Assembly: GCA_034530615.2 (NCBI GenBank)
Contig: JAVRCV020000056.1
Span: forward strand, 13,034-77,033
Source of the DNA: Aulosira sp. ZfuVER01
GTDB taxonomy: Bacteria > Cyanobacteriota > Cyanobacteriia > Cyanobacteriales > Nostocaceae
Length of the DNA stretch: 64,000 nucleotides
Direction: 5' to 3'
Shown piece after piece: positions 9,675 through 31,020 of the stretch (positions within the stretch are counted from its first letter, which is position 1; the number at the start of each line of letters is the position of its first letter). The translations under genes were made by a program, and so were the position numbers. The notes under the pieces are model-generated. The model saw only the letters and a list, made by a program, of their open reading frames with translations, did not search any database and was not told where the DNA came from.

Positions 9675-9716
9675 GATGTTTATGTTTGTGATTAATCGAT
9701 ATGTTGAGCTAAAAAT

Positions 9717-10028: not shown

Positions 10029-10074
10029 CTTCAAAACCTTATTGAGTATCAGTTGAATTGCTTTGATACTTTAC

Positions 10075-11249: not shown

Positions 11250-11308
11250 AATTAAATTCTGCTTCGCTGATTATAGATTTGCTTTTGAAGAGCTAGAACT
11301 ACACTTAT

Positions 11309-12277
11309 TTATAGCAATCGCACGCTTTTTGATTGCATCATTTCCGGTGTAGGTTGATTCACATCCCAAACTAAACCTAGACTCTGCAATACCACAATTA
11401 CCCAATAGCCAATGTCAATTTGCCACCATTGCAACCCAAATTTAGCTGAGTTTTGAAAAGCGTGATGATTGTTGTGCCAAGATTCGCCAAAAGTAGGTAA
11501 AGCCAGCCAAAGATTATTTGTGCTTTTTTCTTTGGTATCAAAACTACGAGTACCATAAAGATGGCAAATTGAGTTAATGCACCAAGTTGTGTGCTGTCCT
11601 AAATATAGACGAATAACTCCACCCCACAAAAAACCATGCCAAGCACCAATCCAATTTCCTGTAAGAATAAAAGCGACAACCGCCGGAAAAACCAGACCCA
11701 AAATCACCCAAACAAAATACAGTTGGTTAAGCTTGCAAATTGTTTTGTCTCGTAGCAGTTCCGGTGCATAGTAAAGTGGGTTGGGATAATCGTACTCAAC
11801 TTTCCACCACAGATGAGCGTGCCAAAATCCGGAAAGCTGATTGCGCCAACCTGTACCGTGTAAATGTGGAGAATGGGTATCCCCAACCTCATCACTATAG
11901 CGATGGTGGTGTCTGTGGTTAGCAACCCAAGAAAGCACAGGGCCTTCCGCACCTGTGGAACCGAGAATTACTAGCAGAATCCGAATAATTGGATGTGCTT
12001 GAAAAGCACGATGGGTAAAGTAGCGGTGATAGCCAACGGTAATTCCTACAGAGGTGAGAAACCACATCCCTAGAAACACTGTGATATCAACTATACCGAT
12101 TGGCTTGCCCCATAAACAGGCGATCGCTAAAATAAACCCAACAAAAGGTAGAACATCACACAATAAAAAATGACGCTTTTGCAACAACTTAATGTAGCTG
12201 TTGCTCATGGTTTTCTTCTTTAATAAATCAGTAGCACGATTAATTGATGCAGATTCAACGCTAATACTGGTTTCCAT
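11309..12277 (-). CDS. Delta9-type acyl desaturase (possible JamB-like acetylenase)
   Basis: GYHRYFTH, HRHHH, GESWHNNHH. Confidence 0.9.
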   Translation of the reverse strand: METSISVESASINRATDLLKKKTMSNSYIKLLQKRHFLLCDVLPFVGFILAIACLWGKPIGIVDITVFLGMWFLTSVGITVGYHRYFTHRAFQAHPIIRILLVILGSTGAEGPVLSWVANHRHHHRYSDEVGDTHSPHLHGTGWRNQLSGFWHAHLWWKVEYDYPNPLYYAPELLRDKTICKLNQLYFVWVILGLVFPAVVAFILTGNWIGAWHGFLWGGVIRLYLGQHTTWCINSICHLYGTRSFDTKEKSTNNLWLALPTFGESWHNNHHAFQNSAKFGLQWWQIDIGYWVIVVLQSLGLVWDVNQPTPEMMQSKSVRLL

Positions 12278-12317
12278 ATTCCCAACTTTGATAACTGATG
12301 CAAGATTTATGCAGAGC

Positions 12318-12401
12318 TAGGGTGTGTTATGCCGTAGGCTAACGCACCATCAAAAATTCAAGCTGCGTCGGTGCGTTGCGCTGCGCGACAACACACCCTA
12401 C
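12318..12401. repeat. REP-like palindromic dispersed repeat
   Basis: TAGGGTGTGTTATGCCGTAGGCTAACGCACC...GGTGCGTTGCGCTGCGCGACAACACACCCTA; near-identical copy at 43135-43211, partial inverted copy near 26145-26177. Confidence 0.8.
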
Positions 12402-12406
12402 TGCGA

Positions 12407-14173: not shown

Positions 14174-14910
14174 TTGACGCCTACCAATTCAGGTTTAGCA
14201 GTAATTTTCTCACCTTGCCACTTAATAGCAGCTTCCAGTTCTGAACCTAAGTAGGGACGAATATTTAATTCAGCCCGAATTTCTTCTAAAGGTTTTTCCC
14301 ATAATGTATTCCAAGGAACGCCAAACAGAGGTTGTGCTTGTTGTCCCATAATCCAGCCGCGCACAAAAGCTTCCATGTGCTGACTGCACAAATCCATATC
14401 TTCAATCGCAGTTTTGAGGAAATTTTTCGCCAGTAACACCACCCAAAAACGAGCAGGATAAAACTGAGTCAAAGAAAATGTCTCTACTTGAATTTCTCCA
14501 GCTTTGTCTGTATTGCTACCAGTAACCACGTGCCAGATATCATGCGTTTCCATCACATAATTGAACAAATATCTATAGGTATCTGATGTATGTTCGCGCA
14601 CTGGCGGCGGAGTTAATCTGTTTCTCAGCATGTGATCGGCGTAAATATAGCCAAAGGTGTTGGTAGGTAATTGATGGAGTTGCTGTAAATCAATCTTACC
14701 CAGGAGCTTTTTTTCAGCTAGGGCTATTCTTCCCCGTTCCGTGCGAGAGAGAAACTGCACAATTTGATTGAGACTCTTGGGATCGATTGCTGCATCAGAT
14801 AAATTGCCACCTGCGCCAAAGGAACCGTAAGGTAGCTGGACAATGCGCATGAAGCGATAGGCGAATATCAGCTTTTTTAGCTCTTTTTTGAGATTTTGTA
14901 GAATTTGCAT
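14170..14910 (-). CDS. Coq4-family metalloprotein
   Basis: LHQLPTNTFGYIY, ETHDIWHVVTG..GEI (HDxxH..E); stop overlaps FAAL start (ATGA). Confidence 0.8.
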   Translation of the reverse strand: MQILQNLKKELKKLIFAYRFMRIVQLPYGSFGAGGNLSDAAIDPKSLNQIVQFLSRTERGRIALAEKKLLGKIDLQQLHQLPTNTFGYIYADHMLRNRLTPPPVREHTSDTYRYLFNYVMETHDIWHVVTGSNTDKAGEIQVETFSLTQFYPARFWVVLLAKNFLKTAIEDMDLCSQHMEAFVRGWIMGQQAQPLFGVPWNTLWEKPLEEIRAELNIRPYLGSELEAAIKWQGEKITAKPELVGVK

Positions 14911-14943
14911 TTGATTGATCTCCCAGCGATGCTTGTGTTTTTT

Positions 14944-15006
14944 AAGTTAAAGAGCGATCGGGGAGAACTAGGGGAGAAATGAGAATCAGATGAGAAGAAG
15001 ATGAGA
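14944..15006 (-). promoter_or_regulatory. Direct-repeat operator plus -10 for the coq4-FAAL operon, with a second 11-bp-period array upstream
   Basis: Minus strand TCTCATC-N4-TCTCATC-N4-TCTCATT, then TCTCCCC-TAGT-TCTCCCC-GATCGCTCTT-TAACTT. Confidence 0.75.
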
Positions 15007-15030
15007 GAGTTAAGATTGTAGGAGCACTTC

Positions 15031-15061
15031 AGATCCCCGACTTCTTGAAGAAGTCGGGGAT
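15031..15061. repeat. Palindromic dispersed repeat or terminator
   Basis: ATCCCCGACTTCTTGAAGAAGTCGGGGAT; degenerate relatives near 23741-23771 and 54584-54615. Confidence 0.6.
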
Positions 15062-15089
15062 ATAGGCAACCATTCTTGCTTAAGTTATA

Positions 15090-15482
15090 TCAACTCTCTA
15101 TTTCGCTATAAGCCCAACCCAATACTTCACTGATTTGCCCTGCCAGTTTTAAAGGACGAAAAGGCTTGGCAAATATAGCGGCTACATCTAATCCAGTAAA
15201 GCAGTCTTGATCTGAATCTTGAACTTTGGCAGTGAGTAAAATTACTGGAATTTGCTGAGTAACAGGGTTAGCCTTTAATTTTTGCAAGGTGGCACGCCCA
15301 TCCATATCAGGCATCATCATATCTAGCAGGATGACATCAACTTGTGAGTTGGCAGCTATATTCAACGCTTCCCGTCCAGAACAAGCCGTCAACACATTCC
15401 AACCAGCACCCAATTCTAATCCCAATTTAGCGATCGCCTGCACATCTTCTTCATCATCAACAATCAAGATATTTCTGCTCAT
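15090..15482 (-). CDS. Single-domain response regulator (RcaF/CheY-like)
   Basis: MSRNILIVDDEED, ILLDMMMPDMDG, LTA, KPF; ATG at 15482 preferred. Confidence 0.9.
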   Translation of the reverse strand: MSRNILIVDDEEDVQAIAKLGLELGAGWNVLTACSGREALNIAANSQVDVILLDMMMPDMDGRATLQKLKANPVTQQIPVILLTAKVQDSDQDCFTGLDVAAIFAKPFRPLKLAGQISEVLGWAYSEIES

Positions 15483-15534
15483 GGTGCCATCCTTGCATGA
15501 TATGTGATGCTGACTAGCTTGATTACCTGGAGCT

Positions 15535-15568
15535 ATTCTAAAATGCAATCGGGGAGAAGTGGGGGAGA
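15535..15568 (-). promoter_or_regulatory. Direct-repeat operator plus -10 upstream of REC gene
   Basis: Minus strand TCTCCCC-CACT-TCTCCCC-GATTGCATTT-TAGAAT. Confidence 0.75.
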
Positions 15569-15587
15569 TTGAAGCAGCGATTAGTTG

Positions 15588-17117
15588 CTAATTAGAGACA
15601 GCTAAAGGTAAAAGTACATAAAAGGTGCTACCTTCCCCTAAAACGCTTTGAACCCAGATTTTACCGTTATGTTGCTGCACAATATTCCGGCAAATCGCCA
15701 GTCCTAAACCTGTTCCGCCTTTGTTGCGAGAATCAGATGCATCTACCTGCTGAAAGCGCTCAAAGATAATTTGTAATTTATCTTCAGGAATTCCTCGCCC
15801 TTCATCTCGAATAGTAATCAACAGGTAGCTGGGTGTATCTTTTTGAGACTCAACACCTTGATTTTCTGAAAGTGTCGCACCGATCCAAACAGTATCCCCT
15901 GGTTCCGAAAACTTAATCGCATTGCTGAGTAAGTTAGTCAAGGTTTGCAAAAGGCGATCGGAATCTGCCCAAAGTTCAACTGCTAAAGGATTAACAATTA
16001 GTTTGACTTGGAGTTTATCTGCCATTGCTTGCATGGCTTCTGTTGCTGTAATCAGCAGTTCAGCAGCGTTGCACTTGCCCATACGCATGAAGATTTTGCC
16101 CGATTTCATCCGTTCTAAATCGAGAATATCGTTCACCAAACGAATTAGACGTTCCGTGTTATTGGTAGCAATGCTCAAAACTTTTTGTCCCTGTGCAGTT
16201 AAAGTTCCTAGTTGTCCTGCACCCAATAAATCTAATGCTCCCATTGTTGAAGTTAAAGGTGTACGTAACTCATGACTGACTAAAGAAATAAACTCGTTTT
16301 CTAGGCGTTTGCGTTCGGTGATGTCATTGGCAATTAATAAAGCGCATGGTACTCCCGCTAGATCAATTAATTCGATAGAAAGTAAGATGGTTTTGATTTC
16401 GGCAGATTTGGTAGAAAATTCAAATTCCAGATTGTACAGTGAACCACTATCAGGTAAACGTTGAATTGTTTGGGCGATCGCTGCTGTATTTTTACCTAAA
16501 TCGAGTTCTGCAACTGTATGTCCAATTACCTCTTCTAAACAATAGCCACTCATTTTTAAGAAGCTGGGATTGACATCAAGAACCCGCGCTTCCGAAATTG
16601 TGGCGATCACGATCGGGTTAGGACTAGAACGAAAAACTTTAGCAAACTTCTCTTCGGCTTTAGCGCGCTCTCTTATTTCTTGCTGTAACTGCTGATTTTG
16701 CGCTTGGAGTTGCTTTTGGAGTTGGCGAATCGTCAAGTGATTTTCAATTCTGGCTAAAACTTCTTCTAGTTGAAAAGGCTTAGTAATATAGTCAACCCCG
16801 CCAACTGCAAACGCCTTCACCTTATCCAACACATCACCCAAAGCGCTGATAAAAATTACCGGAATCTCACAAGTGCGATCGCTTGTCTTTAATTGTTGAC
16901 AAACTTCATAACCATTCATCTCTGGCATATTCACATCTAGCAAAATCAAATCAGGAGGAACTGCATTTGCTCCCCGCAACCCTGTAGAACCTTTAGTCAC
17001 GCTGCGAACTTTATATCCTTGTTCGGTCAGCATCGCAGATAAAAGATTTAGATTTTCCGGTGTATCATCAATTACCAATATGTCTGCTTTCGGAGAGTTG
17101 GATAATTGTTTGGGCAT
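15588..17117 (-). CDS. Hybrid histidine kinase REC-PAS-HisKA-HATPase
   Basis: ILVIDD REC, PAS, SHELRTPL, NAIKFS, DEGRG, GGTGLGL. Confidence 0.93.
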   Translation of the reverse strand: MPKQLSNSPKADILVIDDTPENLNLLSAMLTEQGYKVRSVTKGSTGLRGANAVPPDLILLDVNMPEMNGYEVCQQLKTSDRTCEIPVIFISALGDVLDKVKAFAVGGVDYITKPFQLEEVLARIENHLTIRQLQKQLQAQNQQLQQEIRERAKAEEKFAKVFRSSPNPIVIATISEARVLDVNPSFLKMSGYCLEEVIGHTVAELDLGKNTAAIAQTIQRLPDSGSLYNLEFEFSTKSAEIKTILLSIELIDLAGVPCALLIANDITERKRLENEFISLVSHELRTPLTSTMGALDLLGAGQLGTLTAQGQKVLSIATNNTERLIRLVNDILDLERMKSGKIFMRMGKCNAAELLITATEAMQAMADKLQVKLIVNPLAVELWADSDRLLQTLTNLLSNAIKFSEPGDTVWIGATLSENQGVESQKDTPSYLLITIRDEGRGIPEDKLQIIFERFQQVDASDSRNKGGTGLGLAICRNIVQQHNGKIWVQSVLGEGSTFYVLLPLAVSN

Positions 17118-17308
17118 CGCAATCTTAGCTTGAGCCAGAATCGGCTACGTAATTGTGAATAAAAATTCTAACGTTAATTTCTTAGCTTAATAATCCTTTA
17201 TAAAAACTTCTTCATAGCTTTATCGTAAATAAAAGGGTTTAAGACCCCTACTTCGATACGTAGCATCAGTTTCAGTCGGGGTTTAAATCCCCGTCTGAAA
17301 ATATCTTT

Positions 17309-17347
17309 AATTTTGAATTTTGAATTTTGAATTTTGAATTTTGAATT
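17309..17347 (+). repeat. STRR heptamer tandem repeat (AATTTTG)n
   Basis: About five tandem copies; also at 26522-26547. Confidence 0.85.
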
Positions 17348-17354
17348 GTTAATG

Positions 17355-17388
17355 TCTCCCCCAGTTCTCCCCGATTGTTTTTTATTTT
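17355..17388 (+). promoter_or_regulatory. Direct-repeat operator plus -10
   Basis: TCTCCCC-CAGT-TCTCCCC-GATTGTTTTT-TATTTT. Confidence 0.72.
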
Positions 17389-17427
17389 GAAAACATCAAG
17401 CCAAAAGTTTAATTCCTGACTAATAAT

Positions 17428-17973
17428 ATGACAAATCAACAAATATCTTCTTTACCAAAAACCGCCCGTCTTTTTGCTGCTTTGGGTTTAACTCTCAGTG
17501 CTAGCCTTTTTGTTTACCCTAGTACCAGTCAAGCAGGTAAAAATGGTGGGGCGATACCTGCTGAACTCCAAGGTGAGTGGCTTTACGGTCGAATTTCTTC
17601 TATCCAATACCAAGACCAAATTACAGGACAGTCAGCAGCACCGAATGGTTCGAGCGATCGCTTCCTAGTCGCAGCTAACGGTAGCTACCAGCGACAAAGG
17701 TTAATTCAAATCAACACCTACAACTGTGCGTCTAACCTCTTCATACAAGAGAAAGGTAAAGTTAGCGCTGACGATCGACAACTCACCTTCCAACCGACTG
17801 AAAGCTCATCTAAAGGGCAAATCTGCAATACTGGTCGCACTTACTCTGGAAAGAACACAGCCAAGCCTGAAACCTACGCTTGGTCAATCTCTAAAAACGA
17901 ATACGGACAAGAAGTCCTCTTGCTTCAGACTACCGATGGTCAGGGTCAAGCTCATTATGGACGACCTCAGTAG
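17428..17973 (+). CDS. Secreted hypothetical protein, possibly a lipocalin-like beta-barrel
   Basis: Signal peptide ending SQA; ELQGEW motif; beta-rich; two Cys. Confidence 0.7.
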   Translation: MTNQQISSLPKTARLFAALGLTLSASLFVYPSTSQAGKNGGAIPAELQGEWLYGRISSIQYQDQITGQSAAPNGSSDRFLVAANGSYQRQRLIQINTYNCASNLFIQEKGKVSADDRQLTFQPTESSSKGQICNTGRTYSGKNTAKPETYAWSISKNEYGQEVLLLQTTDGQGQAHYGRPQ

Positions 17974-18069
17974 CTCAGTCACACAATTTTGGATTTATTC
18001 CGAGATAAATTTGCTTTCTCTAAGCTTGTTTAAATTTTTAAATCTAAAATTCGCTAGCAATTAGATTTT

Positions 18070-18103
18070 TCTCCCCTAGTTCTCCCCGATTGTTTCTTAA
18101 TCT
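18070..18103 (+). promoter_or_regulatory. Direct-repeat operator plus -10
   Basis: TCTCCCC-TAGT-TCTCCCC-GATTGTTTCT-TAATCT. Confidence 0.75.
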
Positions 18104-18129
18104 ATAAAATATCGAACAGAGGTTATTCT

Positions 18130-18612
18130 ATGATTCACCATATTTCTTTTGCTGTTAACAACCCTCAACACGTTGCCCAAGTTTTGGCAGAAATTTTAAA
18201 AGCAGAAGCTGTTCCATTTCCTCCTCACCCAGGTAGCTATATGGTTATACCTTTTGATGAACATGGTACAGCCATTGAACTTTATCCTTTAGGTACTCAA
18301 TTAGAACCTGGTGAAGGTGATGGACAATGTGCATTTGTACAAAATTCTATTTCTCCTAAGTTCGTAGATATTCATGCAGCTATTTCTGTACCTGCTAGTC
18401 AAGAAGAAATTCAAAAAATTGGTGCGCGTGAAGGTTGGCGTGTTGTACGCTGTACCCGTGAAACTTTTTTTGATGTCATTGAGTTCTGGGTAGAAAACAG
18501 ACTTATGATCGAACTGCTAACACCAGAAATGGCAACTCAATACGTAAAATTTACAACTCACCCAGAAACTCGAAAAATATTTACGGCAGAACCTGCTTTA
18601 GCCACAGCATAA
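18130..18612 (+). CDS. VOC/glyoxalase-like protein
   Basis: MIHHISFAV..AIELYP..HAAISV..VIEFW..MIELL metal-ligand pattern. Confidence 0.7.
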   Translation: MIHHISFAVNNPQHVAQVLAEILKAEAVPFPPHPGSYMVIPFDEHGTAIELYPLGTQLEPGEGDGQCAFVQNSISPKFVDIHAAISVPASQEEIQKIGAREGWRVVRCTRETFFDVIEFWVENRLMIELLTPEMATQYVKFTTHPETRKIFTAEPALATA

Positions 18613-18675
18613 GTTTTGTTCGCAACTTTAGCACAGTTTTTATTTGAATAAATTGAAGCTTTATACTTAACTTAA

Positions 18676-18708
18676 AACTTCTCCTTTTACCGATCAAGAG
18701 GAGAAGTA
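18676..18708. terminator. Hairpin between convergent genes
   Basis: ACTTCTCCT...AGGAGAAGT inverted repeat. Confidence 0.55.
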
Positions 18709-18803
18709 TATTTATTTTTGCGTTTTATTTGCGCAGTTGCGATCGCTATTAGTTTAATCAAGCAAATTATAGTCTGTTATGGACTTTCTACTTCAACTAG
18801 TAA

Positions 18804-21800
18804 TTAGTTAAATAGATGTGATGTCAGTTCGAGAATTTCATCAAAGCAGAAACTCCGGACTAAATTTAATAATTTTTCTGCTAAGTCAGCATGAGATTGC
18901 GGAATTTGCTCAATTAATTGAAAAATTCTCTCACCATCAACTGCAATAGCTGCTTGATGAAGTTCCCCTATCCATTCAGTGGGCATAATTGTAATTGCAG
19001 AATGAATATCTAACATAGAATATTGAACATTCTCTGACTTTTTATCTGTTATATTTTCGCTACTTTCTTCTGAGAAAAGATAGCTTAAATGTAAATATTC
19101 AGCTATCTTTTCAAAAATTATTTGTTCGCGGAATGGTTTGCGAATTAAGTCGTCGCACCCTGCGGCTAAAATACTTGCTTGTTGTTCTTCAAAAGCACTG
19201 GCTGTCAGAGCAATAATCACTGTGTGGGAATTTGTCTCTAAACTTCTCTCCCTAGCTCTAATTTCTTTAGTGGCATCGTAGCCGTTCATTACAGGCATCC
19301 GCATATCCATCCAAATTAACTGAGGTTGCCATTTCTGCCACATAGCGATCGCTTCTTGTCCGTTACTAGCAGCCTCAACTTCAAAGCCAACACCGCCTAG
19401 AAGTTGCATCATTAAATCGCGGTTTTCTTTGCGATCGTCAACTACGAGAATACGGTAAGTTGGTTGGTCTGCTGCTAGTTTGAGTACGCGCCCCCGACTC
19501 AACTTTGGTGTAACTTTTAATGGTGTGGCTAAATTAACTTGAATGTCAAAGCTAAAAGTAGATCCTTGCCCTAAATTACTGCAAAGGTGAATATCTCCTC
19601 CCAACAACCGCACAAACTGTCGGCTAATAGTTAGACCTAGCCCAGTACCCTCCTTGGTTTGAATACCACTGCTTGTCTGGACAAACGGCTGAAACAGATT
19701 ATTCATTTCTGCTGCTGCTATCCCCCGTCCAGTATCCTCAACTTCAAAGATGATGAATTGGGAATGGGGCATAGATTTGTAGTTATTCTCCTTGTCCCCC
19801 TTGTCTCTCTTGCCCCCCTTGTCCCCCGCATCCCCCTCATCCCCCAATCTCGCCCGCAACGTCACTCCCCCGGTTTGGGTGAACTTGATGGCGTTACCCA
19901 ACAGGTTGATCAAAACTTGGCGGAGTTTACCTTCATCTGTTTGGATATAACGCGGCAGATCGGCAGCAATTTCAAACTTGAGGTACAACTGTTTTGTCTG
20001 CGCCCGTACCTGAAACATTTCTTGTAATGTTTGCAACATCAGGTAGAGGTCGAAGTCTTCAGGATTGAAAACGATTTGTCCGGCCTCAATTTTGGACATT
20101 TCCAGGACATCGTTAATCAGGTTGAGTAGATGTTCTCCACTACGGTTAATCGTAGCTAAAGATTCACGCTGGTTTGAGTTGAGACTAGCGTCTCGCTCCA
20201 TCAACTGAGAAAAACCTAAGATGGCATTGAGAGGAGTGCGGAGTTCGTGGCTCATGTTAGCCAAGAAAGCACTTTTGGCACGGTTGGCAGTTTCGGCGGC
20301 TTCTTTTGCTACTCTCAAGGCTGCTTCTGCTTGATGTCTAGCCCTACCGATCGCAATGATTTCACCTACCAATTTCAGGAGATTCATCTCCTGTTGATTC
20401 CAGTTTTTCGTATAGTGAATAGTATCTGCGGCAATAAACCCGACTACTTTACCAGAATGAATCATTGGTACACCTAATGCAGATTTAATTGACTGATTTT
20501 CAAAGAATTCTTTCTCAGGTGTATCGGGTGGTAAATCGGCTATGCATGGCAAAACAGAATTTTGCCCTATAAGTATTGGTGCAAGTAAAGGGAACATTTC
20601 TAAATTGCCCCTTCTGGCATTACCGCTTAATGGTGGAATATCAGCAGCACGCCATTCATGGACTATGTAGACTTCCCTTGGCTGATCGGATAACTCAAAA
20701 ATCGAGCAGCGTTCAGCATTAATAAATTGAGCGATCGCCTGAAGTGTAAAATTAATTGCTGTGTCTATATCTTGGTCGATAAATTGGCGGGAAATACTGC
20801 TGAGTATACTTTCTAGTTGAGCGCGACTTTGCAAAGCTTGCTCTACTTGCTTGCGATCGCTGATATCTGTAAAGACAGAATCTAAACAAGATTCTTCGGC
20901 GTTGAGGCGCAGTGATAATAGTACCCAAACCACAGAGCCATCGCCACGCCGTAGTGCTAATTCAAAATTGCGAACTTCGCCAGATGCTGCTAACTCTGCT
21001 AACATCCGGGCGCGATCGTTGGGATTAACATACAATTCAGTTGTGAAATACCTGCCAATCAAGTCACTAGCAGCAGCGAAACCTAAGATATCAGCACCGC
21101 GTTGATTTGCATCGACAATTAATCCATCTTGTTGACGAGTGCGGAAAATCCCTACTTGGGAATTTTCAAAGATGTTGCGGTATTTCATTTCACTACGACG
21201 CAAGGCTTCTTCTGTTTGCTTGCGTTCTGTAATGTCCCGCCCCACACCAGCGATCGCAATTTCACCATCAGGAGTGTTAATGGTGGAAGTGTTAAAGCTG
21301 AACCATCGCCAGCTATTGTTTTTGTGTCTTAATCGCACCTCAATACCTGTCTGCTTTTCCCCAGCTATGGCTTTTTGTATACCTGCGGCGCTAATTGCTA
21401 AATCTTCAGGATAAGTAAATTCGACTACAGAATGTCCCTCGATTTCTGGCAGGGTGTAGCCCATAATTGGAGTCACATTAGGCGAGTGGTAAGTAAAAAT
21501 TCCCTCTGGAGAGATGGTAAAAATTAAGTCATTGGCATTCTCTACAATAGTGCGGAACTTGATTTCACTTTGTTGCAAAGCTGCTTGGGCGCGTTTACGT
21601 TCTGTAGCATCGGTACCAACTGAAAGTATTTCGATTAAGTTGCCTTGCTCGTCTAAAATAGGTTTATTTGCCCAAACTATCCAGACGCGATCGCCATTTT
21701 TGCACGAGTTTTCATTTTCATTGAATAGGTAGTTTTCTGGGTGCTGGCAAATATCAACCATTAAAGCCTGTAAGTCGCGCCCAGAAGTTTCAGTTTCGGG

Positions 21801-23525
21801 GACAATTGTCCCGACCACATTGCGTCCTATAATCTCTTGGGCATCAAAACCAAAAAGCTTTTGACCGTAGTCATTTAAGTATATGATGTCACCGTGACTG
21901 TCCCAACGCAGAATAATGCAGTTGGCTGTTTGTACCAAATCGCGATACTGGACTTCGCTTTGTCGCAAAGCTGCTTCTGTGCGTTTGCGATCGCTAATAT
22001 CTCGGACTATTGCCAAGACGTGTCGTTTGCCATTGTAAATGCAAGTCGTTCCTTTAACTTCCACATCTATTAAAGTGCCATCTTTGCAGATATCAACAGC
22101 TTGTCCATAAAATTGCCCCCCAGCGCGCGTTGTCTCAAGAAACTCATAGAAAACCGGATGTGAATTTGGGTGAATGTAAACTGATGGATGCAAAGTAATA
22201 AATTCTTCGTAAGTATAACCATGCATCTGACAAGCAGCGGGATTAACTTCGGCAACTGTTTCGGTTTCTATGTCAGTAATAAATAGTCCATCATTAATCG
22301 CTTCAAAAATACTGCGATATTGCAACTCACTTTGTCGCAATGCTGCTTCTGTTTTTTGGCGTTGGGTGACATCACGGAAACTCCACACTCTACCAATAAT
22401 CTGGTCTTTGATGCGCTGAGGACAGGAGTATCTCTCAAAAACCCTACCATCTTGCAATTCTAAAAAGTCGTAACTATCTAGCTCTGGCTGGGCGTATAAT
22501 TCTCGAACTCGCTGCAAAAATCCCTGAGGATCTTTTAACTGGTTTGCCAAATACGCCAGCCGCTTAGGATGGTCTGGTTCTGTTAAAAGTTCTGGTGGAA
22601 TTGACCACATTTCTAAGAACTTTTGATTGTAACTGGTGATATTTCCTAAGCTATCAATTGCTAAGATACCGTCTTGAATCGATTCCAAGATCGCGCTTAA
22701 CAAAGATAAGGAGTTTTCTAAAGCTACTTGGGTAAGTTTGCGATCGCTAACATCACGCCCTAAAACTACCAGCGCCTTGCGTCTACCATCTGGGTGAAAT
22801 ACAGGCACTTTAATCATATCCACAATGCTCACTGTACCATCAGGGCGAGGTACAACTTCTTCTACCCGATTTACAGATCCCTGCTGCCAAGCTTGTTCGT
22901 CTGTTTGGTCGCAATTGAGTAAAGTATCGTGATAAAAATCGCTAAATTGCGCTAGTTCGGAATCAGTTTTTCCTTTGTAATCAACACCATGTATCTCTAA
23001 AAATTCCAGGTTAGCTTGATTCGACTCCAGCCATTTTCCTTCGCTGTCCTTTAAACAGATAATATCTGGTGTCGCGTTAATTAGCGTGCGTAAACGTTCT
23101 TCACTCTCTTGGAAGGATTTTTGAGCTTGTTGAGCCAGCGTAATATCCTGAATTACTAGTACAGCACAATCATCCTCATTCAGTCCCGCACGACTACCAG
23201 AGATTTGCAGCACCAAAGAACGCTTACCTTGATGAAACTCATACTCTGTAGTTTCGTACTTTCCATTTTGGATCAGCACATCAGGGTAGGAGTTTAAAGC
23301 AACAGGTTTTCCTAATTTTAATAAGGGTAGTAACTCACTTAGCTGCCAGCCTGCGATCGCACTTTTGGGCCGATTCACCAGACACTCAAAGCTAGAATTA
23401 CACCATTGAACACGTCGGTCTTCCCCAACCCAGACTACAGCATCAGCGATCGCACCTAGCGTTACTTCCATCTTGGTAAGGGTTGCTTGCAATAGCTTAA
23501 CCTGCTCTAGCTGTTCAGCGCTCAT
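18804..23525 (-). CDS. Cytoplasmic hybrid histidine kinase: multiple PAS, GAF, HisKA, HATPase, REC
   Basis: Repeated PAS/PAC units (..DISDRK..), GAF, MSHELRTPLN, NAIKFT, GTGLGL, C-terminal REC (MDMRMP); no obvious transmembrane segment. Confidence 0.93.
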   Translation of the reverse strand: MSAEQLEQVKLLQATLTKMEVTLGAIADAVVWVGEDRRVQWCNSSFECLVNRPKSAIAGWQLSELLPLLKLGKPVALNSYPDVLIQNGKYETTEYEFHQGKRSLVLQISGSRAGLNEDDCAVLVIQDITLAQQAQKSFQESEERLRTLINATPDIICLKDSEGKWLESNQANLEFLEIHGVDYKGKTDSELAQFSDFYHDTLLNCDQTDEQAWQQGSVNRVEEVVPRPDGTVSIVDMIKVPVFHPDGRRKALVVLGRDVSDRKLTQVALENSLSLLSAILESIQDGILAIDSLGNITSYNQKFLEMWSIPPELLTEPDHPKRLAYLANQLKDPQGFLQRVRELYAQPELDSYDFLELQDGRVFERYSCPQRIKDQIIGRVWSFRDVTQRQKTEAALRQSELQYRSIFEAINDGLFITDIETETVAEVNPAACQMHGYTYEEFITLHPSVYIHPNSHPVFYEFLETTRAGGQFYGQAVDICKDGTLIDVEVKGTTCIYNGKRHVLAIVRDISDRKRTEAALRQSEVQYRDLVQTANCIILRWDSHGDIIYLNDYGQKLFGFDAQEIIGRNVVGTIVPETETSGRDLQALMVDICQHPENYLFNENENSCKNGDRVWIVWANKPILDEQGNLIEILSVGTDATERKRAQAALQQSEIKFRTIVENANDLIFTISPEGIFTYHSPNVTPIMGYTLPEIEGHSVVEFTYPEDLAISAAGIQKAIAGEKQTGIEVRLRHKNNSWRWFSFNTSTINTPDGEIAIAGVGRDITERKQTEEALRRSEMKYRNIFENSQVGIFRTRQQDGLIVDANQRGADILGFAAASDLIGRYFTTELYVNPNDRARMLAELAASGEVRNFELALRRGDGSVVWVLLSLRLNAEESCLDSVFTDISDRKQVEQALQSRAQLESILSSISRQFIDQDIDTAINFTLQAIAQFINAERCSIFELSDQPREVYIVHEWRAADIPPLSGNARRGNLEMFPLLAPILIGQNSVLPCIADLPPDTPEKEFFENQSIKSALGVPMIHSGKVVGFIAADTIHYTKNWNQQEMNLLKLVGEIIAIGRARHQAEAALRVAKEAAETANRAKSAFLANMSHELRTPLNAILGFSQLMERDASLNSNQRESLATINRSGEHLLNLINDVLEMSKIEAGQIVFNPEDFDLYLMLQTLQEMFQVRAQTKQLYLKFEIAADLPRYIQTDEGKLRQVLINLLGNAIKFTQTGGVTLRARLGDEGDAGDKGGKRDKGDKENNYKSMPHSQFIIFEVEDTGRGIAAAEMNNLFQPFVQTSSGIQTKEGTGLGLTISRQFVRLLGGDIHLCSNLGQGSTFSFDIQVNLATPLKVTPKLSRGRVLKLAADQPTYRILVVDDRKENRDLMMQLLGGVGFEVEAASNGQEAIAMWQKWQPQLIWMDMRMPVMNGYDATKEIRARERSLETNSHTVIIALTASAFEEQQASILAAGCDDLIRKPFREQIIFEKIAEYLHLSYLFSEESSENITDKKSENVQYSMLDIHSAITIMPTEWIGELHQAAIAVDGERIFQLIEQIPQSHADLAEKLLNLVRSFCFDEILELTSHLFN

Positions 23526-23923
23526 TAGCGATTCCTTATTGCCTCTGGGATAGATTGAATACCAGTTTGGTATAGAGATTGTATCGCTAATTATAAATGC
23601 TTGAACAAGTTTCTAGAATTGCTTCATAGTATTCTGTTACACGAAATTACAGCAAGAGTATTAGCTTGTTTGAATTCTCGAAAATTTTAATAATGCTTTT
23701 TGAATAAGTTAATTTCTTTGCTTTATTGGTGTGGATTTAGTACCTCGACTTCTTTAATAATTCGGGGTTCTAGGCAATAATCTCCAATTCTCTCAACCAT
23801 TACTAGGTATATAGGTGATACCACGATATTTAAGTGCAGATTTAGGTCGATTTTGAACTGGTTTCAATTTTACAATCTGGTAACTAAATCCACTATCCTT
23901 TGCTGACTATTCCCACTACACAA

Positions 23924-24721
23924 CTACGAATACAGGCTTCCGGATTTATCTGTAGGCTGATTAATTTTACATTTTGAATTTTGAATTGTCTCAAGGGGTT
24001 GACGGCTTTTAATTACTCGTGCTGGTACACCCACAGCTACTGAAAATGGAGGAATATCTTTAGTAACAACAGCGCCAGCACCTATTACACTACCTCTACC
24101 AATGGTCACGCCATCTAATACTTTCACCCCATGACCTAGCCAGCAGTCATCCTCAATTACGATCCCCTTACAAGTAATACCTTGGTATTTGATTGGCTCA
24201 CTTGGATCTGCAAAGTTGTGATTATTTGCATATATTCCAGTGTGGGCTGCAATTAAGCAGTGCTTACCAATTTTAATTTCTCCAGGGCCAGCAATACAAA
24301 CGCTAGGGCCAATAAAAGTATCTTGACCGATGTGAATACAAGTGTTGTTTAATGCCCCTATGAGAACATTACGCTCAAGAACAACTCCATTTTCTAGATG
24401 AATTCTATTATTCTCGTGTCCTTTTCCATCTATACGAACACCTTTGAAAATATATGCTCCATTGCCAATCTCAATAGCATCAGTACTAATAAATTCAACG
24501 CCATCTTGAATATAAACTGAGCTACCTAGCCGGGCAAAAATTGCGCGATACATCAAATTACGTAACTTTACGCCTCCAAAAATTGTGGGAATATCACCTA
24601 GAAAAGTAATTAGCAAAAGTTGTTGAAACCGCTTCAGTTTTGAAAAATATCTCAAGTCATTCATGGCTCTATTATTCTTGATTGCGTTATTGGAGATTTT
24701 TGGAATTGTGAAATACCTCAC
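23924..24721 (-). CDS. Hexapeptide-repeat (left-handed beta-helix) acyltransferase
   Basis: IEDDCWLG, IGRGSVIGAGAVVTKDIP, GVPA; start uncertain. Confidence 0.88.
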   Translation of the reverse strand: MRYFTIPKISNNAIKNNRAMNDLRYFSKLKRFQQLLLITFLGDIPTIFGGVKLRNLMYRAIFARLGSSVYIQDGVEFISTDAIEIGNGAYIFKGVRIDGKGHENNRIHLENGVVLERNVLIGALNNTCIHIGQDTFIGPSVCIAGPGEIKIGKHCLIAAHTGIYANNHNFADPSEPIKYQGITCKGIVIEDDCWLGHGVKVLDGVTIGRGSVIGAGAVVTKDIPPFSVAVGVPARVIKSRQPLETIQNSKCKINQPTDKSGSLYS

Positions 24722-25706
24722 AATATCCTGTATTTGAGTCTTGCTATGTATTGCCTATATTGCTGTCTTTTGAGATTGCAAGTCCACGAATAAACAAGAT
24801 AGCCGATCTAAAGTTTTTCAAACATTTGAAAAACCCAAAGCAAGCTCTCAGGTTAGAAGCTATTAAATCTAGGGGCTATTTAATTATTAGCAATAGCTTT
24901 ACAAGAGATGTCGTATATTTATTTACAAGCTTATGATTGAATCTATGTACTTGTTGAGAAATTCGAGCAAATACTTTTTCTATCTGTCACTGATGACTAC
25001 TGAAGCTTAATGTTTCCCCACAAAATCAAATACTTAACTCTCGATGTGGATTAGTTAGTAATTTGACAAGCTACTATAATTCAGTATTCAGTTATCAAAT
25101 ATCAAAGTAGTGATTTCAATTCAATTACATCTATTTATGCTGTTTCCAAGCAAGCATAAAATTTCCTCGCTAACTTCAAGATGCAATTGTTGAATTACTC
25201 ATAAAATTTCCCAGCAAGTACAAGCACGTTAACTTAGGGGGGAGTGTCTCCAACTTCAGCCATCACATTGAAGTTAACCATCGGAGCATACAAATAAACA
25301 CTTCCCCGATTACTATAACGGCTTACTTGCAGCCAGTTTTTATAGTCTGCTGCTGTTCTCATCATTACGTACACAGAGAATTTACATATTCACTAAAGCG
25401 CCTTTATAGTGACACCATTAGTGTGCTTTCCCCATCCTAGAAGAGACTGATAAAAGTATTGTTAAGGAACAGTAAAGTTTAAAGGAAAAATATAAAGATT
25501 TCAAAATAGACTTGATTTTGTAATCAGTATTTTTCTGGCTTTAGGCATTAATTATACTATCGATAATACCCAATTAAGCAAATAAATAAGCACTAAAAAT
25601 CAGGGTAAATATTTCCTATGTGGTGCTGCATTAGACTAGAAAATTTACCATTGATTTATAATATTAAGTATTGTCGGTAAAAAGTTAACTAGTTTTTGAT
25701 AAAAAC

Positions 25707-25965
25707 CTACTTAAAGAGCAATACAGGAATGTGGCTGCTGCGTCGCATTTGGGCTGTAGTACTGCTAATGACTAAGTGCCGAATACATCTGTGTCCGTAG
25801 GCTTCTATAATCAGTAAATTCATATCTTGCTGTTCTACGTAGCTGGCTATAACCCTTTCTGGTTCGCCATGTATGATTTGACAAATTGGTACAAAACCAC
25901 CTTTACGCGCTTCTATTTCAGCAGTTTGTAGGCGAGACATCGCTGCTGCATCTGGTTGTTTAGAG
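25707..25965 (-). pseudogene. C-terminal remnant of a universal stress protein
   Basis: GEPERVIASYV..LLIIEAYGH..ISSTTAQMRRSSHIPVLL; N-terminal part absent and conserved glycines substituted. Confidence 0.65.
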
Positions 25966-26289
25966 GCTAAGTCAACAACATTAGGAATTGATGAGCGATC
26001 GCTTCATCAATCCAAGTTTACAATCTTGATGCAGATTTTAATTCAGACAGGCGATCGCCTAGTGCATCTTCATTAGGGATCAATATAATGTAGTATCTTT
26101 TTTCTTCGTTTTGGCAGCTTTCCTGAAATACCTTGACTTGAACTAGTGCGTTAGGCTACGCCATAACACACGCTACAAATACCTAATATTTTTTCAAAAT
26201 TTAAATCGGATTTTTATAGTTGATTTTTACTACATAAAAAAAGCTTACAGCTAACAGAAATTTTTGGGTTCCTCGCTATTTTTAAAGTA

Positions 26290-26478
26290 ATGATGGAGCC
26301 GCTTCAAATGAAACGATGTGAAACACTAGCTGAATTGGTCGCACGAACTGTGGTTGAATTTGAGCAACGCGAGCTAGAACTACAAAAAGCTCAGGTGCAT
26401 CAAGTAAAGCCACAAGAAAAAGCTACTAAGCAGCGTAAATCGAATCAAGTTGCTTATACCATTTCACCAAAAATATGA
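26290..26478 (+). CDS. Small hypothetical protein convergent on the recombinase
   Basis: 62-aa ORF with helical, coiled-coil-like N-terminus and basic tail. Confidence 0.5.
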   Translation: MMEPLQMKRCETLAELVARTVVEFEQRELELQKAQVHQVKPQEKATKQRKSNQVAYTISPKI

Positions 26479-26550
26479 TGCAGACGCAAACCTTGGAACC
26501 TTTGCTGAGTCTCAATTTCTTAATTTTGAATTTTGAATTTTGAATTGGTA

Positions 26551-28113
26551 TTAGTGTAGGTATAACAGTTCAACTCCTGTTACTAGGTTGCCATCTACCA
26601 CTATTCTTTTGATACATCCTTTAAGTAAAGCTTGTTTGTCCTGTTGTTCTAAACCTTGCCAATATCTCTCGTTAGAAAATGCAACAACAATTCGCTCTTT
26701 AGCTATGAGATATTGTTTAGATGTGTTGTTTGTTGTAGCGACAGCCGTTGCTATCTGCATCCTGATATCCTCTTTAGCTTTTTCAATTGCTGGATTTGAT
26801 GGTAATGCTTCTAATGTATTTAAAGAAGCCCGCAGTGTTTTAACCTCTGGTGATTCCTCGCAAGAATCAACTTTTTGTTCTACTAATCCAGCTAACCTTT
26901 CTGCTTCCCGAATTAAATGATTAATTACTTGTTTTTCTAATTCATCTGAAGAAATCATGCGTCCGTTTTGACAAGCACCAGTACGATAAAAACTGCATTG
27001 ATAGTGATGACGGACATAATTTTTACGTTTAACCAATTTCTTGCACTGGCGACTATAAGCAGCACCACAATGAGCGCATTTAACTAAGTTGGCGAATGGG
27101 TTGACATATTTTTGCTCGGTAGCCCATCGGTTATTTCGGTTCTCACGGATCGTGGCTTTAATGCTTTCGTGTTCCTCACGGGTGATAATCGTTTCATCTT
27201 CGTGGGTTCCCCATGTTACTTCCCATTCATCGAAGGGTTTGCGATGTCCTTTGGGGCGAACCATCACATTATATGGTGTCCCCCCTGCATAAATAGGATT
27301 TACGAGGATAGAGCGTAACCCAGAAACCGACCACTTCAATCCTGTGTGCGGATAACGCAGATTTAACGCACCTCCACGAGATTTGTTGATATTCTCTAGT
27401 ACAATTTCCTCTGATTCCTTTAGGAGGTTAATTCTGGTATCGGTGGCTTTGGGAATGGCGTTTGCTTGTATACCAAAAGTCTCATGCAGTACTTTCACTG
27501 TTTGAGATACTGTACCTACTGCTAAAAAGGTATCAAATACAAATCGCATCAATTGCGATCGCGTGAATTCTCTCTTCCCCTCAATTAAACAAACACAGGG
27601 ACGCTCATCTCGTTTGTATTTGTCATCCTCAACCATATACCCCAATGGTGCATTCCAGTGAGGTTTTTTATTTTCTTTACGGGTGTCGCGTTCTTTTTTG
27701 ACTCGCATTGCTAGCATTTTCACCTCATACTTAGATGCTGCTAGTCGCACATCGATTGTTAACTCACCACCAATACTCGATAAGTCGAAAGGCTCATCTA
27801 GCGCATAGGGTTGTATACTTTTCTTTTTTAACGCATCCATCAAACGATAAAAAGTCATTGATGAAGATGTTAAACGGTCGATGCGAATAAATAACAACTT
27901 CGATACTTTACCTGGTGCAGATGCATTAATATCTTCAATCAACTGTAACAGCCCTTTACGGCGATCGCTGGTACGGCTTTCTACGTCGTAATATATGTGC
28001 GTTGCACCAGCCTCACGCAACCGCCGCATTTGTTTGATTAACGCGCCTTTATCTTCCGCCTGCTCATCTGTTGAAACCCGTGCGTAACCCAAAACGTCCA
28101 TATACCAAACCAT
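26551..28113 (-). CDS. Large serine recombinase (XisF-like) of the nifK-interrupting element
   Basis: YARVST catalytic Ser, RIDRL, recombinase domain, Zn ribbon CAHC..C..C, coiled coil. Confidence 0.92.
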   Translation of the reverse strand: MVWYMDVLGYARVSTDEQAEDKGALIKQMRRLREAGATHIYYDVESRTSDRRKGLLQLIEDINASAPGKVSKLLFIRIDRLTSSSMTFYRLMDALKKKSIQPYALDEPFDLSSIGGELTIDVRLAASKYEVKMLAMRVKKERDTRKENKKPHWNAPLGYMVEDDKYKRDERPCVCLIEGKREFTRSQLMRFVFDTFLAVGTVSQTVKVLHETFGIQANAIPKATDTRINLLKESEEIVLENINKSRGGALNLRYPHTGLKWSVSGLRSILVNPIYAGGTPYNVMVRPKGHRKPFDEWEVTWGTHEDETIITREEHESIKATIRENRNNRWATEQKYVNPFANLVKCAHCGAAYSRQCKKLVKRKNYVRHHYQCSFYRTGACQNGRMISSDELEKQVINHLIREAERLAGLVEQKVDSCEESPEVKTLRASLNTLEALPSNPAIEKAKEDIRMQIATAVATTNNTSKQYLIAKERIVVAFSNERYWQGLEQQDKQALLKGCIKRIVVDGNLVTGVELLYLH

Positions 28114-28155
28114 AGAAGCGTTATCCTAATATAACTTGATAACTAGCGCATTAGT

Positions 28156-28413
28156 TCTCTTCTGTTCACCGAGCCTGTAGACCTGTTAATCGGTAACTCC
28201 TACGGTAAGTACCTGTGGCGCGATTGTAAGGTTCCCCTCGTAAGAATTGGCTATCCCATCATGGATCGTCACCACCTGCACCGCTACAGCACCATCGGTT
28301 ATCAAGGTGTAATCAACCTCCTCAACTGGGTTGTTAATACAATCTTCGAGGAAATCGATCACAACACTAACATTCCTTCTAAGACCGACATTTCCTACGA
28401 CTTGATTCGTTAA
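28156..28413 (+). CDS. nifK: 3' fragment of nitrogenase MoFe protein beta chain (interrupted gene)
   Basis: SLLFTEPVDLLIGNSYGKYLWRDCKVPLVRIGYPIMDRHHLHRYSTIGYQGVINLLNWVVNTIFEEIDHNTNIPSKTDISYDLIR*; no start codon; not in ORF track. Confidence 0.95.
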   Translation, partial: SLLFTEPVDLLIGNSYGKYLWRDCKVPLVRIGYPIMDRHHLHRYSTIGYQGVINLLNWVVNTIFEEIDHNTNIPSKTDISYDLIR

Positions 28414-28492: not shown

Positions 28493-28515
28493 TCCTCGTA
28501 CCTGAAGTATTGATT

Positions 28516-28860
28516 ATGGAAACTATCACCAAACATCACTCTCATTCTCATCCTCATCCTCAGCCTAACTACCATCCACCCAACTATAAACGCTCTGGTA
28601 CTTTTGATATCTTGAATCCCTTGCGTCGGTTGGTTGATGGCATTACAGTAAAAAATGCTCGTTTTGCCCATATAATTTGTCAGGTAATACCTTGCTGTTG
28701 TCCCTTTGAGCGCAATATTCAATTATTAGGCAAGACTTTTCATATTCCCGCACTGTGCAAACTCAATCCTTTGTATGATGAGTTTGTGATGTTGCGTTTT
28801 CGTGCGCTCTCTTATCTTGCAGATGAATGTGGAGAGGATGTCACAAAATACATTTGTTAG
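28516..28860 (+). CDS. Mo-dependent nitrogenase C-terminal domain protein
   Basis: ICQVIPCCCPFER..IPALCKLNPLYDE..LRFRALSYLADECGED; sits between nifK and nifE. Confidence 0.85.
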   Translation: METITKHHSHSHPHPQPNYHPPNYKRSGTFDILNPLRRLVDGITVKNARFAHIICQVIPCCCPFERNIQLLGKTFHIPALCKLNPLYDEFVMLRFRALSYLADECGEDVTKYIC

Positions 28861-28989: not shown

Positions 28990-29553
28990 ATGAAAATCAC
29001 CCAAGGCAAAATTAACGAGCTGCTTAGTGAGCCAGGATGCGAACATAATCAGCACAAACAAAGCGAAAAGAAAAACAAGTCTTGTACCCAACAGGCGCAA
29101 CCAGGCGCGGCTCAAGGGGGTTGTGCTTTTGATGGCGCAATGATTGCCTTAGTGCCAATTACTGATGCGGCTCATTTAGTCCACGGGCCGATCGCCTGTG
29201 CTGGTAATTCCTGGGGAAGTCGTGGTAGTCTCTCTTCAGGCCCCATGCTCTACAAAACGGGGTTTACCACTGACTTAAGTGAAAATGATGTAATCTTTGG
29301 GGGCGAAAAGAAACTCTACAAAGCCATCCTCGAAATACATAAACGCTACAATCCAGCCGCAGTTTTTGTTTACGCTACCTGCGTGACTGCTTTGATTGGT
29401 GATGATATCGATGCTGTTTGCAAAACTGCGGCAGAAAAAATTGGCACTCCTGTTATTCCGGTAATTGCTCCGGGATTTATTGGGAGTAAAAATCTGGGTA
29501 ATCGCTTTGGCGGTGAAGCTTTGCTGGAATATGTAGTAGGTACAGCAGAACCA
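28990..29553 (+). CDS. nifE: 5' fragment of FeMo-cofactor scaffold NifE (interrupted gene)
   Basis: [31 protein letters not shown]; homology ends at VGTAEP, then non-Nif[11 protein letters not shown] to 29586. Confidence 0.95.
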
Positions 29554-29613: not shown

Positions 29614-31020
29614 ATGAGAGTTTACGGTTACGCCCGCGTTAGCACGCAAGAACAAGCTGAGGAGTTTGACGCACTAAATCAGCAAATAGCTAGATTAAAG
29701 GCGGCGGGTGCAACGGAAGTATTAATAGATATTGAGTCGGGACGCAACGATGGGAGAAAACAGTATAACGAGTTGCTCAAGTTGACGCAACAAAACCAAG
29801 TTGACGAAATTATCATAACTCGCGTCGATCGCTTAGGTAGGAGTGTGATAGCTATCCATAAGGCGATCGATATTTTCGTGAAGCATAATGTTAATCTGCG
29901 AATATTGGATGCACCTGTCGATCCTAATTCCCCTTTCGGCTGGTTTAGTATTAATCAAATGTCTGGGTTGGCAGAATTTGAATCAAGGTTATTATCTCAG
30001 AGGATTAAGCATGGAAATAATTATTTTCGACAGCAACTAAAGTTTTGCAGTCCGCCATTTGGATATGCTAAAGACGAAAATCAGCGGTTAATTCCTAATA
30101 ACAATATTCACGAAAAATCAGGGAAAACTTACTTTGAACTAGCTAAGATTATTATTGATTTAACACTCTCGATGCGATCGCTTAAGGATGTCTGCAATCA
30201 TATTTACACTGAATACGAAGTAGTTTTTAGTGTTGCAGGCTTGCGAGATTGGGTGAAAAACCCGGCACTGCAAGGACATACAGCTTATTTCGTCAAAAAG
30301 AAGAAAGGCGTTAATCGCGAACCAATCATAAATTTCAACACCCACGAAGCCTTAATTACCGCAGACACAGTAGACGCAATCCAACGTAAGTTGTTAGCAA
30401 ATAAGAAGTATCGCAGTTCCGCACAATCAACTCGTGGCGACTATCCCCTCGCAGGCTTAATTAAATGTGCCTATTGTGGGGGAGGTATGTATCGTAACTT
30501 TTCCCGCCACAAAACTAGAACCGAGTACATACGCTGCGTTAATTACAACAAACCGGGAAAGTATCACTGCGAAAATTCCAAATGTACCCGACTGCGGGAA
30601 ATTATCGCCCAGACGATCGCGGCTTTATGTGCAAATGCGCCGAATTTAATTGAGTATCTAGAAACTCAGTCAACCACAATGCAGGCGATTAATACCAAAG
30701 AAATCGAAAACTTAACCAATGAATTGTCCGTTATGCGGGGGCTACGCAGCTCCAACCCCGATATCATTGAAGCGATCGCCAAAATCGAGGCGACAATTAA
30801 CACCCTATCAAGTCCCACTAGAATTGTTGATAGGGATGCTTTTGAGAATGCTAAGAGGAAAATAGCGATCGCATCTCAGGCTACATTCTGGGAATCTTTG
30901 GATGATTCGGAATTGCGATCGGCGTTGGCTGAGTTTGTCGAGAAGGTTGAGGTGGATTCGTCGGGGGATATAACTCCTGCTTTTAAATTGCCATTAACCC
31001 TATCTTCAATGCGTCCGTAG
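29614..31020 (+). CDS. Large serine recombinase (XisF-like) of the nifE-interrupting element
   Basis: YARVST, TRVDRLGR, PPFGY, Zn ribbon CAYC..C..C. Confidence 0.92.
   Translation: MRVYGYARVSTQEQAEEFDALNQQIARLKAAGATEVLIDIESGRNDGRKQYNELLKLTQQNQVDEIIITRVDRLGRSVIAIHKAIDIFVKHNVNLRILDAPVDPNSPFGWFSINQMSGLAEFESRLLSQRIKHGNNYFRQQLKFCSPPFGYAKDENQRLIPNNNIHEKSGKTYFELAKIIIDLTLSMRSLKDVCNHIYTEYEVVFSVAGLRDWVKNPALQGHTAYFVKKKKGVNREPIINFNTHEALITADTVDAIQRKLLANKKYRSSAQSTRGDYPLAGLIKCAYCGGGMYRNFSRHKTRTEYIRCVNYNKPGKYHCENSKCTRLREIIAQTIAALCANAPNLIEYLETQSTTMQAINTKEIENLTNELSVMRGLRSSNPDIIEAIAKIEATINTLSSPTRIVDRDAFENAKRKIAIASQATFWESLDDSELRSALAEFVEKVEVDSSGDITPAFKLPLTLSSMRP

Follow-up and report, generated by a model that had tools for sequence, protein, structure and literature searches.

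Based on 64 kb of sequence from Aulosira sp. ZfuVER01 (contig JAVRCV020000056.1; this whole stretch is referred to here as the window), the nif cluster of this cyanobacterium appears to be interrupted within nifK. We consider it likely, at a probability of about 85%, that the region presented here represents the right-hand junction of an interruption element that sits in nifK at nucleotide (nt) 1277 and is excised during development. To the right of the junction lies a 3′ fragment of nifK, and to its left, on the opposite strand, a gene for a large serine recombinase (Table 1).

The frame that contains the nifK fragment is open from 28147 to 28413 on the forward strand, preceded by TAG at 28144-28146 and closed by TAA at 28411-28413, and it corresponds to NifK amino acids ∼426-511. 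Pfam PF00148 matches it with an E value of 1.9e-19 over profile positions 334-398 of 399 (the last 65), the NCBIfam nifK model TIGR01286 with an E value of 6.8e-39 over profile positions 431-516 of 516, and the C-terminus of NifK from Nostoc sp. T09 (locus L021) is 96.6% identical to it over 87 amino acids. The fragment contains no internal stop or frameshift. The initial annotation, made from the letters of the sequence, had read the start-less frame 28156-28413 as a NifK C-terminus free of internal stops, and this is borne out by both profiles and by the identity to Nostoc sp. T09. An A+T-rich inverted repeat (28438-28497) directly follows the nifK stop codon on its 3′ side.

The fragment is under purifying selection like that on intact nifK, as expected of a gene part that is still in use. 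Across its 85 codons it differs from the Nostoc sp. T09 gene by seven synonymous changes and one non-synonymous change. The ratio of non-synonymous to synonymous substitution rates (dN/dS) against 31 intact nifK genes has a median of 0.077 (range 0.025-0.165), compared with a median of 0.091 for the same 85 codons in 464 pairs of intact genes.

The position of the break was mapped against related loci. A search for such loci with full-length NifK matched 601 stretches (579 relatives), of which the best 80 were kept, and these 80 loci, which come from other cyanobacteria and carry an intact nifK, were aligned by blastn with window positions 27901-29900. Fifteen alignments reach the nifK part and none of them goes left of 28146, while six begin at exactly 28154. 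In the related loci the gene starts at position 10001 and it is position 11277 that aligns with 28154, which gives nt 1277 of nifK. The best alignment was to Nostoc sp. T09, with 90.6% identity over 28154-29559. In a base-by-base comparison with six intact loci, identity was high rightward of 28154 and at chance level leftward of it. The crossover had previously been placed near 28154, a position that proved accurate to the base, since homology to intact nifK starts there with the bases GTTCT (28154-28158). Base composition is of no help in marking a boundary at either junction discussed in this study, as the G+C content is uniform at 0.34-0.45.

The remainder of nifK does not lie in the window. 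Both strands of the 64 kb were searched by tblastn with two full-length NifK proteins (P0002 and P0006), and of nifK itself residues 425-511 alone were recovered, at 28150-28410. The next match was a weak paralogy to the nifE fragment described below, at 24-25% identity (29056-29487); P0002 gave one further match with an E value of 0.011 (33 amino acids, 59717-59815), and all other matches with either query had E values of 0.35 or above. NifK amino acids 1-424 were thus found on neither strand, extending to the whole window the earlier observation that no 5′ nifK occurs in the preceding 28 kb. Because this part of the gene is missing from the window, the element should be at least 28.1 kb long.

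The recombinase gene beside the junction is an intact open reading frame (ORF) that stays open to an upstream ATG at 28113 (26551-28113). Most relatives of the protein are 516 amino acids long, and the ATG at 28101 is therefore preferred as the start. From this ATG it is 52 nt to the first nifK base; from the ATG at 28113 it is 40 nt. The distance of about 40 bp between recombinase ATG and fragment given in the initial annotation is thus right for the upstream ATG and too short for the likelier one. Judged by its sequence, the product is a large serine recombinase, with a predicted catalytic domain carrying the serine motif, a recombinase domain and a zinc ribbon (Resolvase PF00239, 3.4e-17; Recombinase PF07508, 3.9e-08; Zn_ribbon_recom PF13408, 9.1e-11). 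Its N-terminal GYARVST/YARVST motif aligns with the nucleophile region of the gamma-delta resolvase (2gm4) and also with the TP901-1 integrase (3bvp), and its C-terminal 200 residues align with the A118 integrase (4kis). The NCBIfam model NF041201 (recomb_XisF) scores it at 541.5 bits, against a cutoff of 375. Just past its stop codon are four copies of a tandem heptamer, TTGAATT (26515-26545), and beside the gene is an ORF-poor stretch of 1.8 kb (24722-26550). Within that stretch, a 77-amino acid ORF on the reverse strand (25707-25940) matches the universal stress protein family over its C-terminal half alone (profile positions 71-141 of 141) and is probably a gene remnant.

Table 1: Features at the nifK and nifE interruptions in the 64-kb window.
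Feature	Position	Strand	Basis or remark
Body of presumed nifK element in the window, at least 28.1 kb	1..28153	.	left end outside the window
Large serine recombinase gene, xisK-like, 516 amino acids	26551..28101	-	Pfam, NCBIfam, relatives
Right end of nifK element: 52-nt spacer from recombinase start to junction	28102..28153	.	no similarity to intact nifK
GTTCT, probable crossover core	28154..28158	+	first five bases shared with intact nifK
nifK 3′ fragment	28154..28413	+	codons from 28156: 85 amino acids and TAA stop
ORF of the Mo-nitro_C family, flanked by nifK and nifE, an order shared with intact clusters	28510..28860	+	Pfam PF06967, E 1.3e-38
nifE 5′ fragment, amino acids 1 to ∼188	28990..29553	+	TIGR01283 nifE, E 2e-85, profile 2-192 of 459
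Second large serine recombinase, start of nifE element, co-oriented with nifE	29614..31020	+	Pfam; NCBIfam 503.4 bits

Elements of this kind have been described before. The first nifK element was reported from Calothrix rhizosoleniae SC01 (Hilton et al., 2013; PMC3667715), and a survey of 38 genomes later listed eight nifK elements in two variants (Hilton, Meeks & Zehr, 2016; PMC4874684). According to Table B of that survey, six of the eight lie at nt 1277-1279, carry a serine xis gene at the element end in the orientation opposite to nifK and 51-62 bp from that end, are flanked by the direct repeats GTTC, GTTCT, TAG or TCTTT, and are 16 to 85 kb long, one being given as more than 20 kb (PMC4874684). 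The element in the window resembles this variant, as tabulated there, in its insertion point (nt 1277, within ∼10 bp), in a recombinase gene at the 3′-proximal end that runs opposite to nifK with a spacer of 52 nt, in the GTTCT at the junction, and in a cargo of tens of kilobases with the G+C content of its surroundings. It differs in its host, which is a relative of Nostoc sp. T09 by nifK-nifE DNA (90.6%).

A similar element was reported from Calothrix sp. NIES-4101, where an insertion of 8.6 kb divides nifK into amino acids 1-426 and 425-511, with cnxisK, which encodes a serine recombinase, at 55 bp from nifK-II; full genes were recovered from nitrogen-fixing cultures by resequencing and polymerase chain reaction (Uesaka et al., 2024; PMC11249958). 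As described in that report, the split at amino acid 426 and the recombinase on the opposite strand near the 3′ fragment are like those in the window. The NIES-4101 element, unlike ours, is 8.6 kb rather than at least 28.1 kb long, and nifE is intact in that strain but split in the window (PMC11249958). The same report gives CnXisK as 49.8% identical to XisF. It had been proposed at the outset that nifK is split about 85 codons before its end by a serine-recombinase element; the site, the recombinase type and its place, orientation and distance all match the published nt 1277 variant and the NIES-4101 split, and we uphold that proposal.

The recombinase in the window has 159 relatives with an E value of 0.001 or below, among them proteins that are 84-93% identical to it. 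Identity is 90% to a protein of Calothrix brevissima NIES-22, 88% to Brasilonema angustatum, 86% to Scytonema sp. PMC 1069.18, 86% to Fortiea contorta (which we take to be the PCC 7126 strain of the 2016 survey table), 84% to a 516-amino acid protein of Calothrix sp. NIES-4101 (P0136) and 78-80% to Rivularia proteins, and falls to 51-53% for the group of 514-amino acid XisF proteins from Nostoc sp. PCC 7107 and others. Of the 119 relatives P0122-P0240, 67 were combined with four sequences translated in this analysis into a tree of 71 rows; the relatives were chosen among proteins of at least 480 amino acids, taking all named relatives and every second unnamed one. The window recombinase falls in a 30-row clade with the NIES-22, NIES-4101, Fortiea, Brasilonema, Scytonema and Rivularia proteins, with a support of 96 in the Shimodaira-Hasegawa-like approximate likelihood ratio test (SH-aLRT). 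A recombinase encoded 387 bp upstream of nifS at another locus (L047) belongs to a separate clade of 11 rows (SH-aLRT 100). From the usual gene order, this is presumably where fdxN is to be expected. The tree thus places the window recombinase with what appear to be nifK-element recombinases and apart from fdxN-type XisF. The link of the clade's named proteins to nifK draws on the published elements, on three matched contigs (see below) and on the presumed identity of the Fortiea strain with PCC 7126.

The element shares with the fdxN element of Anabaena/Nostoc sp. PCC 7120 and its recombinase XisF the basic layout of a big element that lies within a gene of the nif cluster and has a large serine recombinase gene at one end. 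However, its target is nifK, its recombinase is only ∼52% identical and belongs to a separate clade, and XisH and XisI were not found among the 88 window ORFs that were scanned. The nifK target, the ∼52% identity and the lack of a Pfam match to XisH/XisI among these 88 ORFs rule out an fdxN element with XisF in the strict sense. A more distant likeness is found in the skin element of Bacillus subtilis, where the large serine recombinase SpoIVCA, encoded near the element end, restores sigK in the mother cell. There too, a terminally differentiating cell rebuilds a gene by excision, but the phylum, the target gene and the cell fate programme differ.

Truncated 5′ halves of nifK exist in other genomes. 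A protein search with amino acids 1-424 of the Nostoc sp. T09 NifK gave 120 listed matches, 15 of which (within P0241-P0257 and P0290-P0292) are such halves. Thirteen of these are 434-467 amino acids long; P0242 has 484, with 50 extra N-terminal residues, and P0292 has 501, with a 71-amino acid tail. All 15 leave NifK similarity at amino acids 427-429 and continue into a tail of 5-71 amino acids, and R[SR]LM[CR] is found across the break in 13 of them, which points to conserved left ends of the nifK-1277 elements. Three of the truncated proteins can be paired with recombinases of the clade described above through longest contigs of equal size (142,662, 24,592 and 56,617 bp), suggesting that both element ends lie on one contig in those three pairs. 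None of the 15 exceeds 88% identity, so that none can be assigned to the genome studied here.

The conserved codons of these tails back-translate to CTN-ATG-YGN and, read together with the right end in the window, they allow a recombination site to be proposed. In it, CGCATTA (28147-28153) would be the element-side half-site and the junction of the excised circle would read CGCATTA-GTTCTC-TNATGYG, a putative 7-bp inverted repeat around a 6-bp spacer, with the 2-bp crossover at TC (28156-28157). GTTCT is seen at the right junction; the left junction lies outside the window. When a second copy of the element end was sought in the 64 kb, the right end alone matched, and a degenerate left-junction pattern had no matches there.

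Taken as an excisable element, the arrangement would work as follows. In vegetative cells nifK would be split, with its last 85 codons at least 28 kb from the 5′ 426 codons, which are expected to lie in direct orientation, and the element would end in its own large serine recombinase gene reading away from the junction. In differentiating heterocysts, to which excision is presumably restricted, the recombinase would pair the element ends, cut at the 2-bp crossover within GTTCT and rejoin the DNA. The element would thereby be released in circular form and nifK would be restored in frame (...H-M/L-R-S-L-L-F-T-E-P...).

A number of points weigh against a developmentally excised nifK element. The nifK 5′ half of this genome is not among the best 80 of the 579 relatives, all of which cover amino acids 1-511; because all 80 do so, split nifK genes will have been outranked there. 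On the recombinase strand, no sigma-70-like promoter was found in 28102-28450, scans around the junction for promoters, terminators and NtcA-type sites gave none upstream of the point where the recombinase gene begins, and the GTA-N8-TAC site closest to it (27971-27984) falls within the recombinase ORF. The XisH and XisI families gave no match among the 88 window ORFs scanned with Pfam, none of them nested in a larger ORF; XisF is cited as requiring both proteins (in PMC11249958). In addition, the selection test covers 85 codons and its pairwise distances include the time before insertion, and P0136 is no more than a candidate for CnXisK itself.

Three other explanations of the split were weighed. 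Restoration of nifK by an inversion or a multi-step rearrangement, with an inverted 5′ half and a recombinase that flips the segment, is improbable. It draws on the fact that neither the window nor the best 80 loci fix the orientation of the 5′ half, and on precedents: the nifK parts of Fischerella sp. PCC 9339 run in opposite directions, which the survey notes as an ‘odd assembly’ (PMC4874684) and the NIES-4101 report re-reads as an inversion, while proposing two inversions for nifH and nifB in NIES-4101 (PMC11249958). However, all six elements at nt 1277-1279 in Table B of the survey are direct and excisable (PMC4874684), the nifK split of NIES-4101 is likewise direct (PMC11249958), and the window recombinase is placed and oriented as in the excision type.

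More doubtful again is that the fragment is a dead remnant of a destroyed nifK with its 5′ part lost or decayed, in a strain that does not fix nitrogen with this cluster or that has another nitrogenase copy. The 5′ half was indeed not located in the window or in the best 80 loci, but the fragment is free of stops and frameshifts, its dN/dS is comparable to that of intact genes, and the recombinase ORF is intact. Compared with an intact cluster, the adjoining Mo-nitro_C ORF shows 85% identity and the nifE 5′ part 96%, and the junction coincides exactly with the site conserved in a functional family. As for an assembly chimera, in which unrelated DNA was joined to the nifK 3′ end, the source does appear to be a draft contig. 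A chance misjoin is nevertheless very unlikely, and the least probable of these explanations, because the break coincides, to the base, with a recombination site that has been documented, and the cognate recombinase lies beside it at the distance known from the literature.

A developmentally excised nifK element thus remains our preferred reading, and nifE, the next nif gene in the window, is interrupted as well. The Mo-nitro_C ORF that separates the two genes is 85% identical to the ORF in the same place in Nostoc sp. T09, and the nifE fragment is 96.4% identical to amino acids 1-194 of NifE from that strain. Similarity to intact nifE ends at 29553, which places the split at nt ∼559. The Nostoc sp. 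T09 counterparts of NifE amino acids 195-474, NifN, nifX and the downstream nif genes were not found in the window, and since the nifE 3′ part and the downstream nif genes are missing from it, the nifE element should be at least 34.4 kb long. A nifE variant at nt 558 is described from Scytonema hofmanni PCC 7110, with a serine recombinase where the element begins, on the same strand, at 66 bp (PMC4874684); the nifE element in the window matches this variant as given there. Heptamer-like repeats are present upstream of nifE (28870-28960).

Among the best 80 loci, nifE is full-length in 75, too short to tell in three and broken at amino acids 187-189 in two. One of these two, from Rhizonema sp. 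NSF051 (L032; 11227-12725), has a recombinase 81.6% identical to that of the nifE element in the window, 59 bp past the nifE break, and a conserved left end; the other, from Calothrix sp. NIES-2100 (L030; 12659-21533), gave no recombinase match in the 8.8 kb of sequence at the nifE break. The recombinases of the nifE and nifK elements in the window are 25% identical to each other. A single recombinase serving both elements was considered and rejected, as the proteins are only 25% identical and the sites differ; restoration of nifE would need a second, independent excision by the recombinase encoded at 29614-31020. In the rows of the survey's Table B that name nifK or nifE, no genome combines a nifK element of the 1277 type with an element in nifE (PMC4874684).

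Between two large elements there is thus an islet of 1.4 kb, which comprises the 3′ end of nifK, the Mo-nitro_C ORF and the 5′ part of nifE. Both recombinase genes start within ∼60 bp of the islet and read outward, that of the nifE element 61 bp behind the nifE fragment. As the two elements flank the islet, both recombinase genes would have nif sequence as their upstream control DNA. It is conceivable, though unlikely, that this amounts to a coupled, transcription-triggered and self-limiting switch that orders the two excisions. Under such a switch, nif read-through transcription could trigger excision of the nifE element, the recombinase of the nifK element would be driven antisense from inside the nifK 3′ end, and each excision would swap the DNA upstream of each recombinase gene and so reset its expression.

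The cargo on either side of the islet resembles ordinary chromosomal genes. In the nifK element it includes a hexapeptide transferase and, within 2857-23525, a 1573-amino acid PAS/GAF hybrid histidine kinase, additional kinases and response regulators (one of them with GGDEF), and a lipid-type cluster of two fatty-acid desaturases, an AMP-ligase, an ACP, a CMAS-type methyltransferase, a Coq4-like protein and a flavin monooxygenase. The nifE element (31861-32655; 43899-56107) carries a molybdate-type periplasmic binding protein (SBP_bac_11) and an OprB porin, together with a sulfur/sulfonate block that comprises a PALP cysteine-synthase-like enzyme, an Rrf2 regulator, a hexapeptide transferase, an ABC ATPase, NIL-domain proteins, a luciferase-like monooxygenase, an FMN reductase and a TauD fragment. 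Excision would remove all of these nifE-element genes from the chromosome of the heterocyst. The further sequence joined to the window is likely to be no more than ∼13 kb, given a longest contig of 77,033 bp for the cluster to which the window recombinase belongs. Outside the window, a 248-amino acid protein (P0001) is 98% identical to the NifK fragment in its NifK part, which runs from about amino acid 405 and is fused to ∼140 residues without a Pfam match. This may mean that a close relative has another nifK break point, ∼20 codons further upstream, or that an ORF was called across a junction.

For annotation, the consequence is that nifK in this genome will escape gene callers or be wrongly labelled by them, and the recombinase of the nifK element will be named ‘fdxN element XisF’ despite its location in nifK. 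NF041201, an equivalog model entitled ‘fdxN element excision recombinase XisF’, scores both recombinases in the window above its cutoff, and its label covers both clades of the tree as well as the unrelated nifE recombinase. Automatic names are unreliable here because the model labels alike two recombinases that are 25% identical and reside in nifK and in nifE. As nifK elements have already been described, the element in the window does not represent a novel type of nif interruption. It is a further case within a family of programmed DNA rearrangements for which element type, insertion site and excision have been published before, and the main curiosity lies in the back-to-back interruption, in which the adjacent genes nifK and nifE would each require their own excision.

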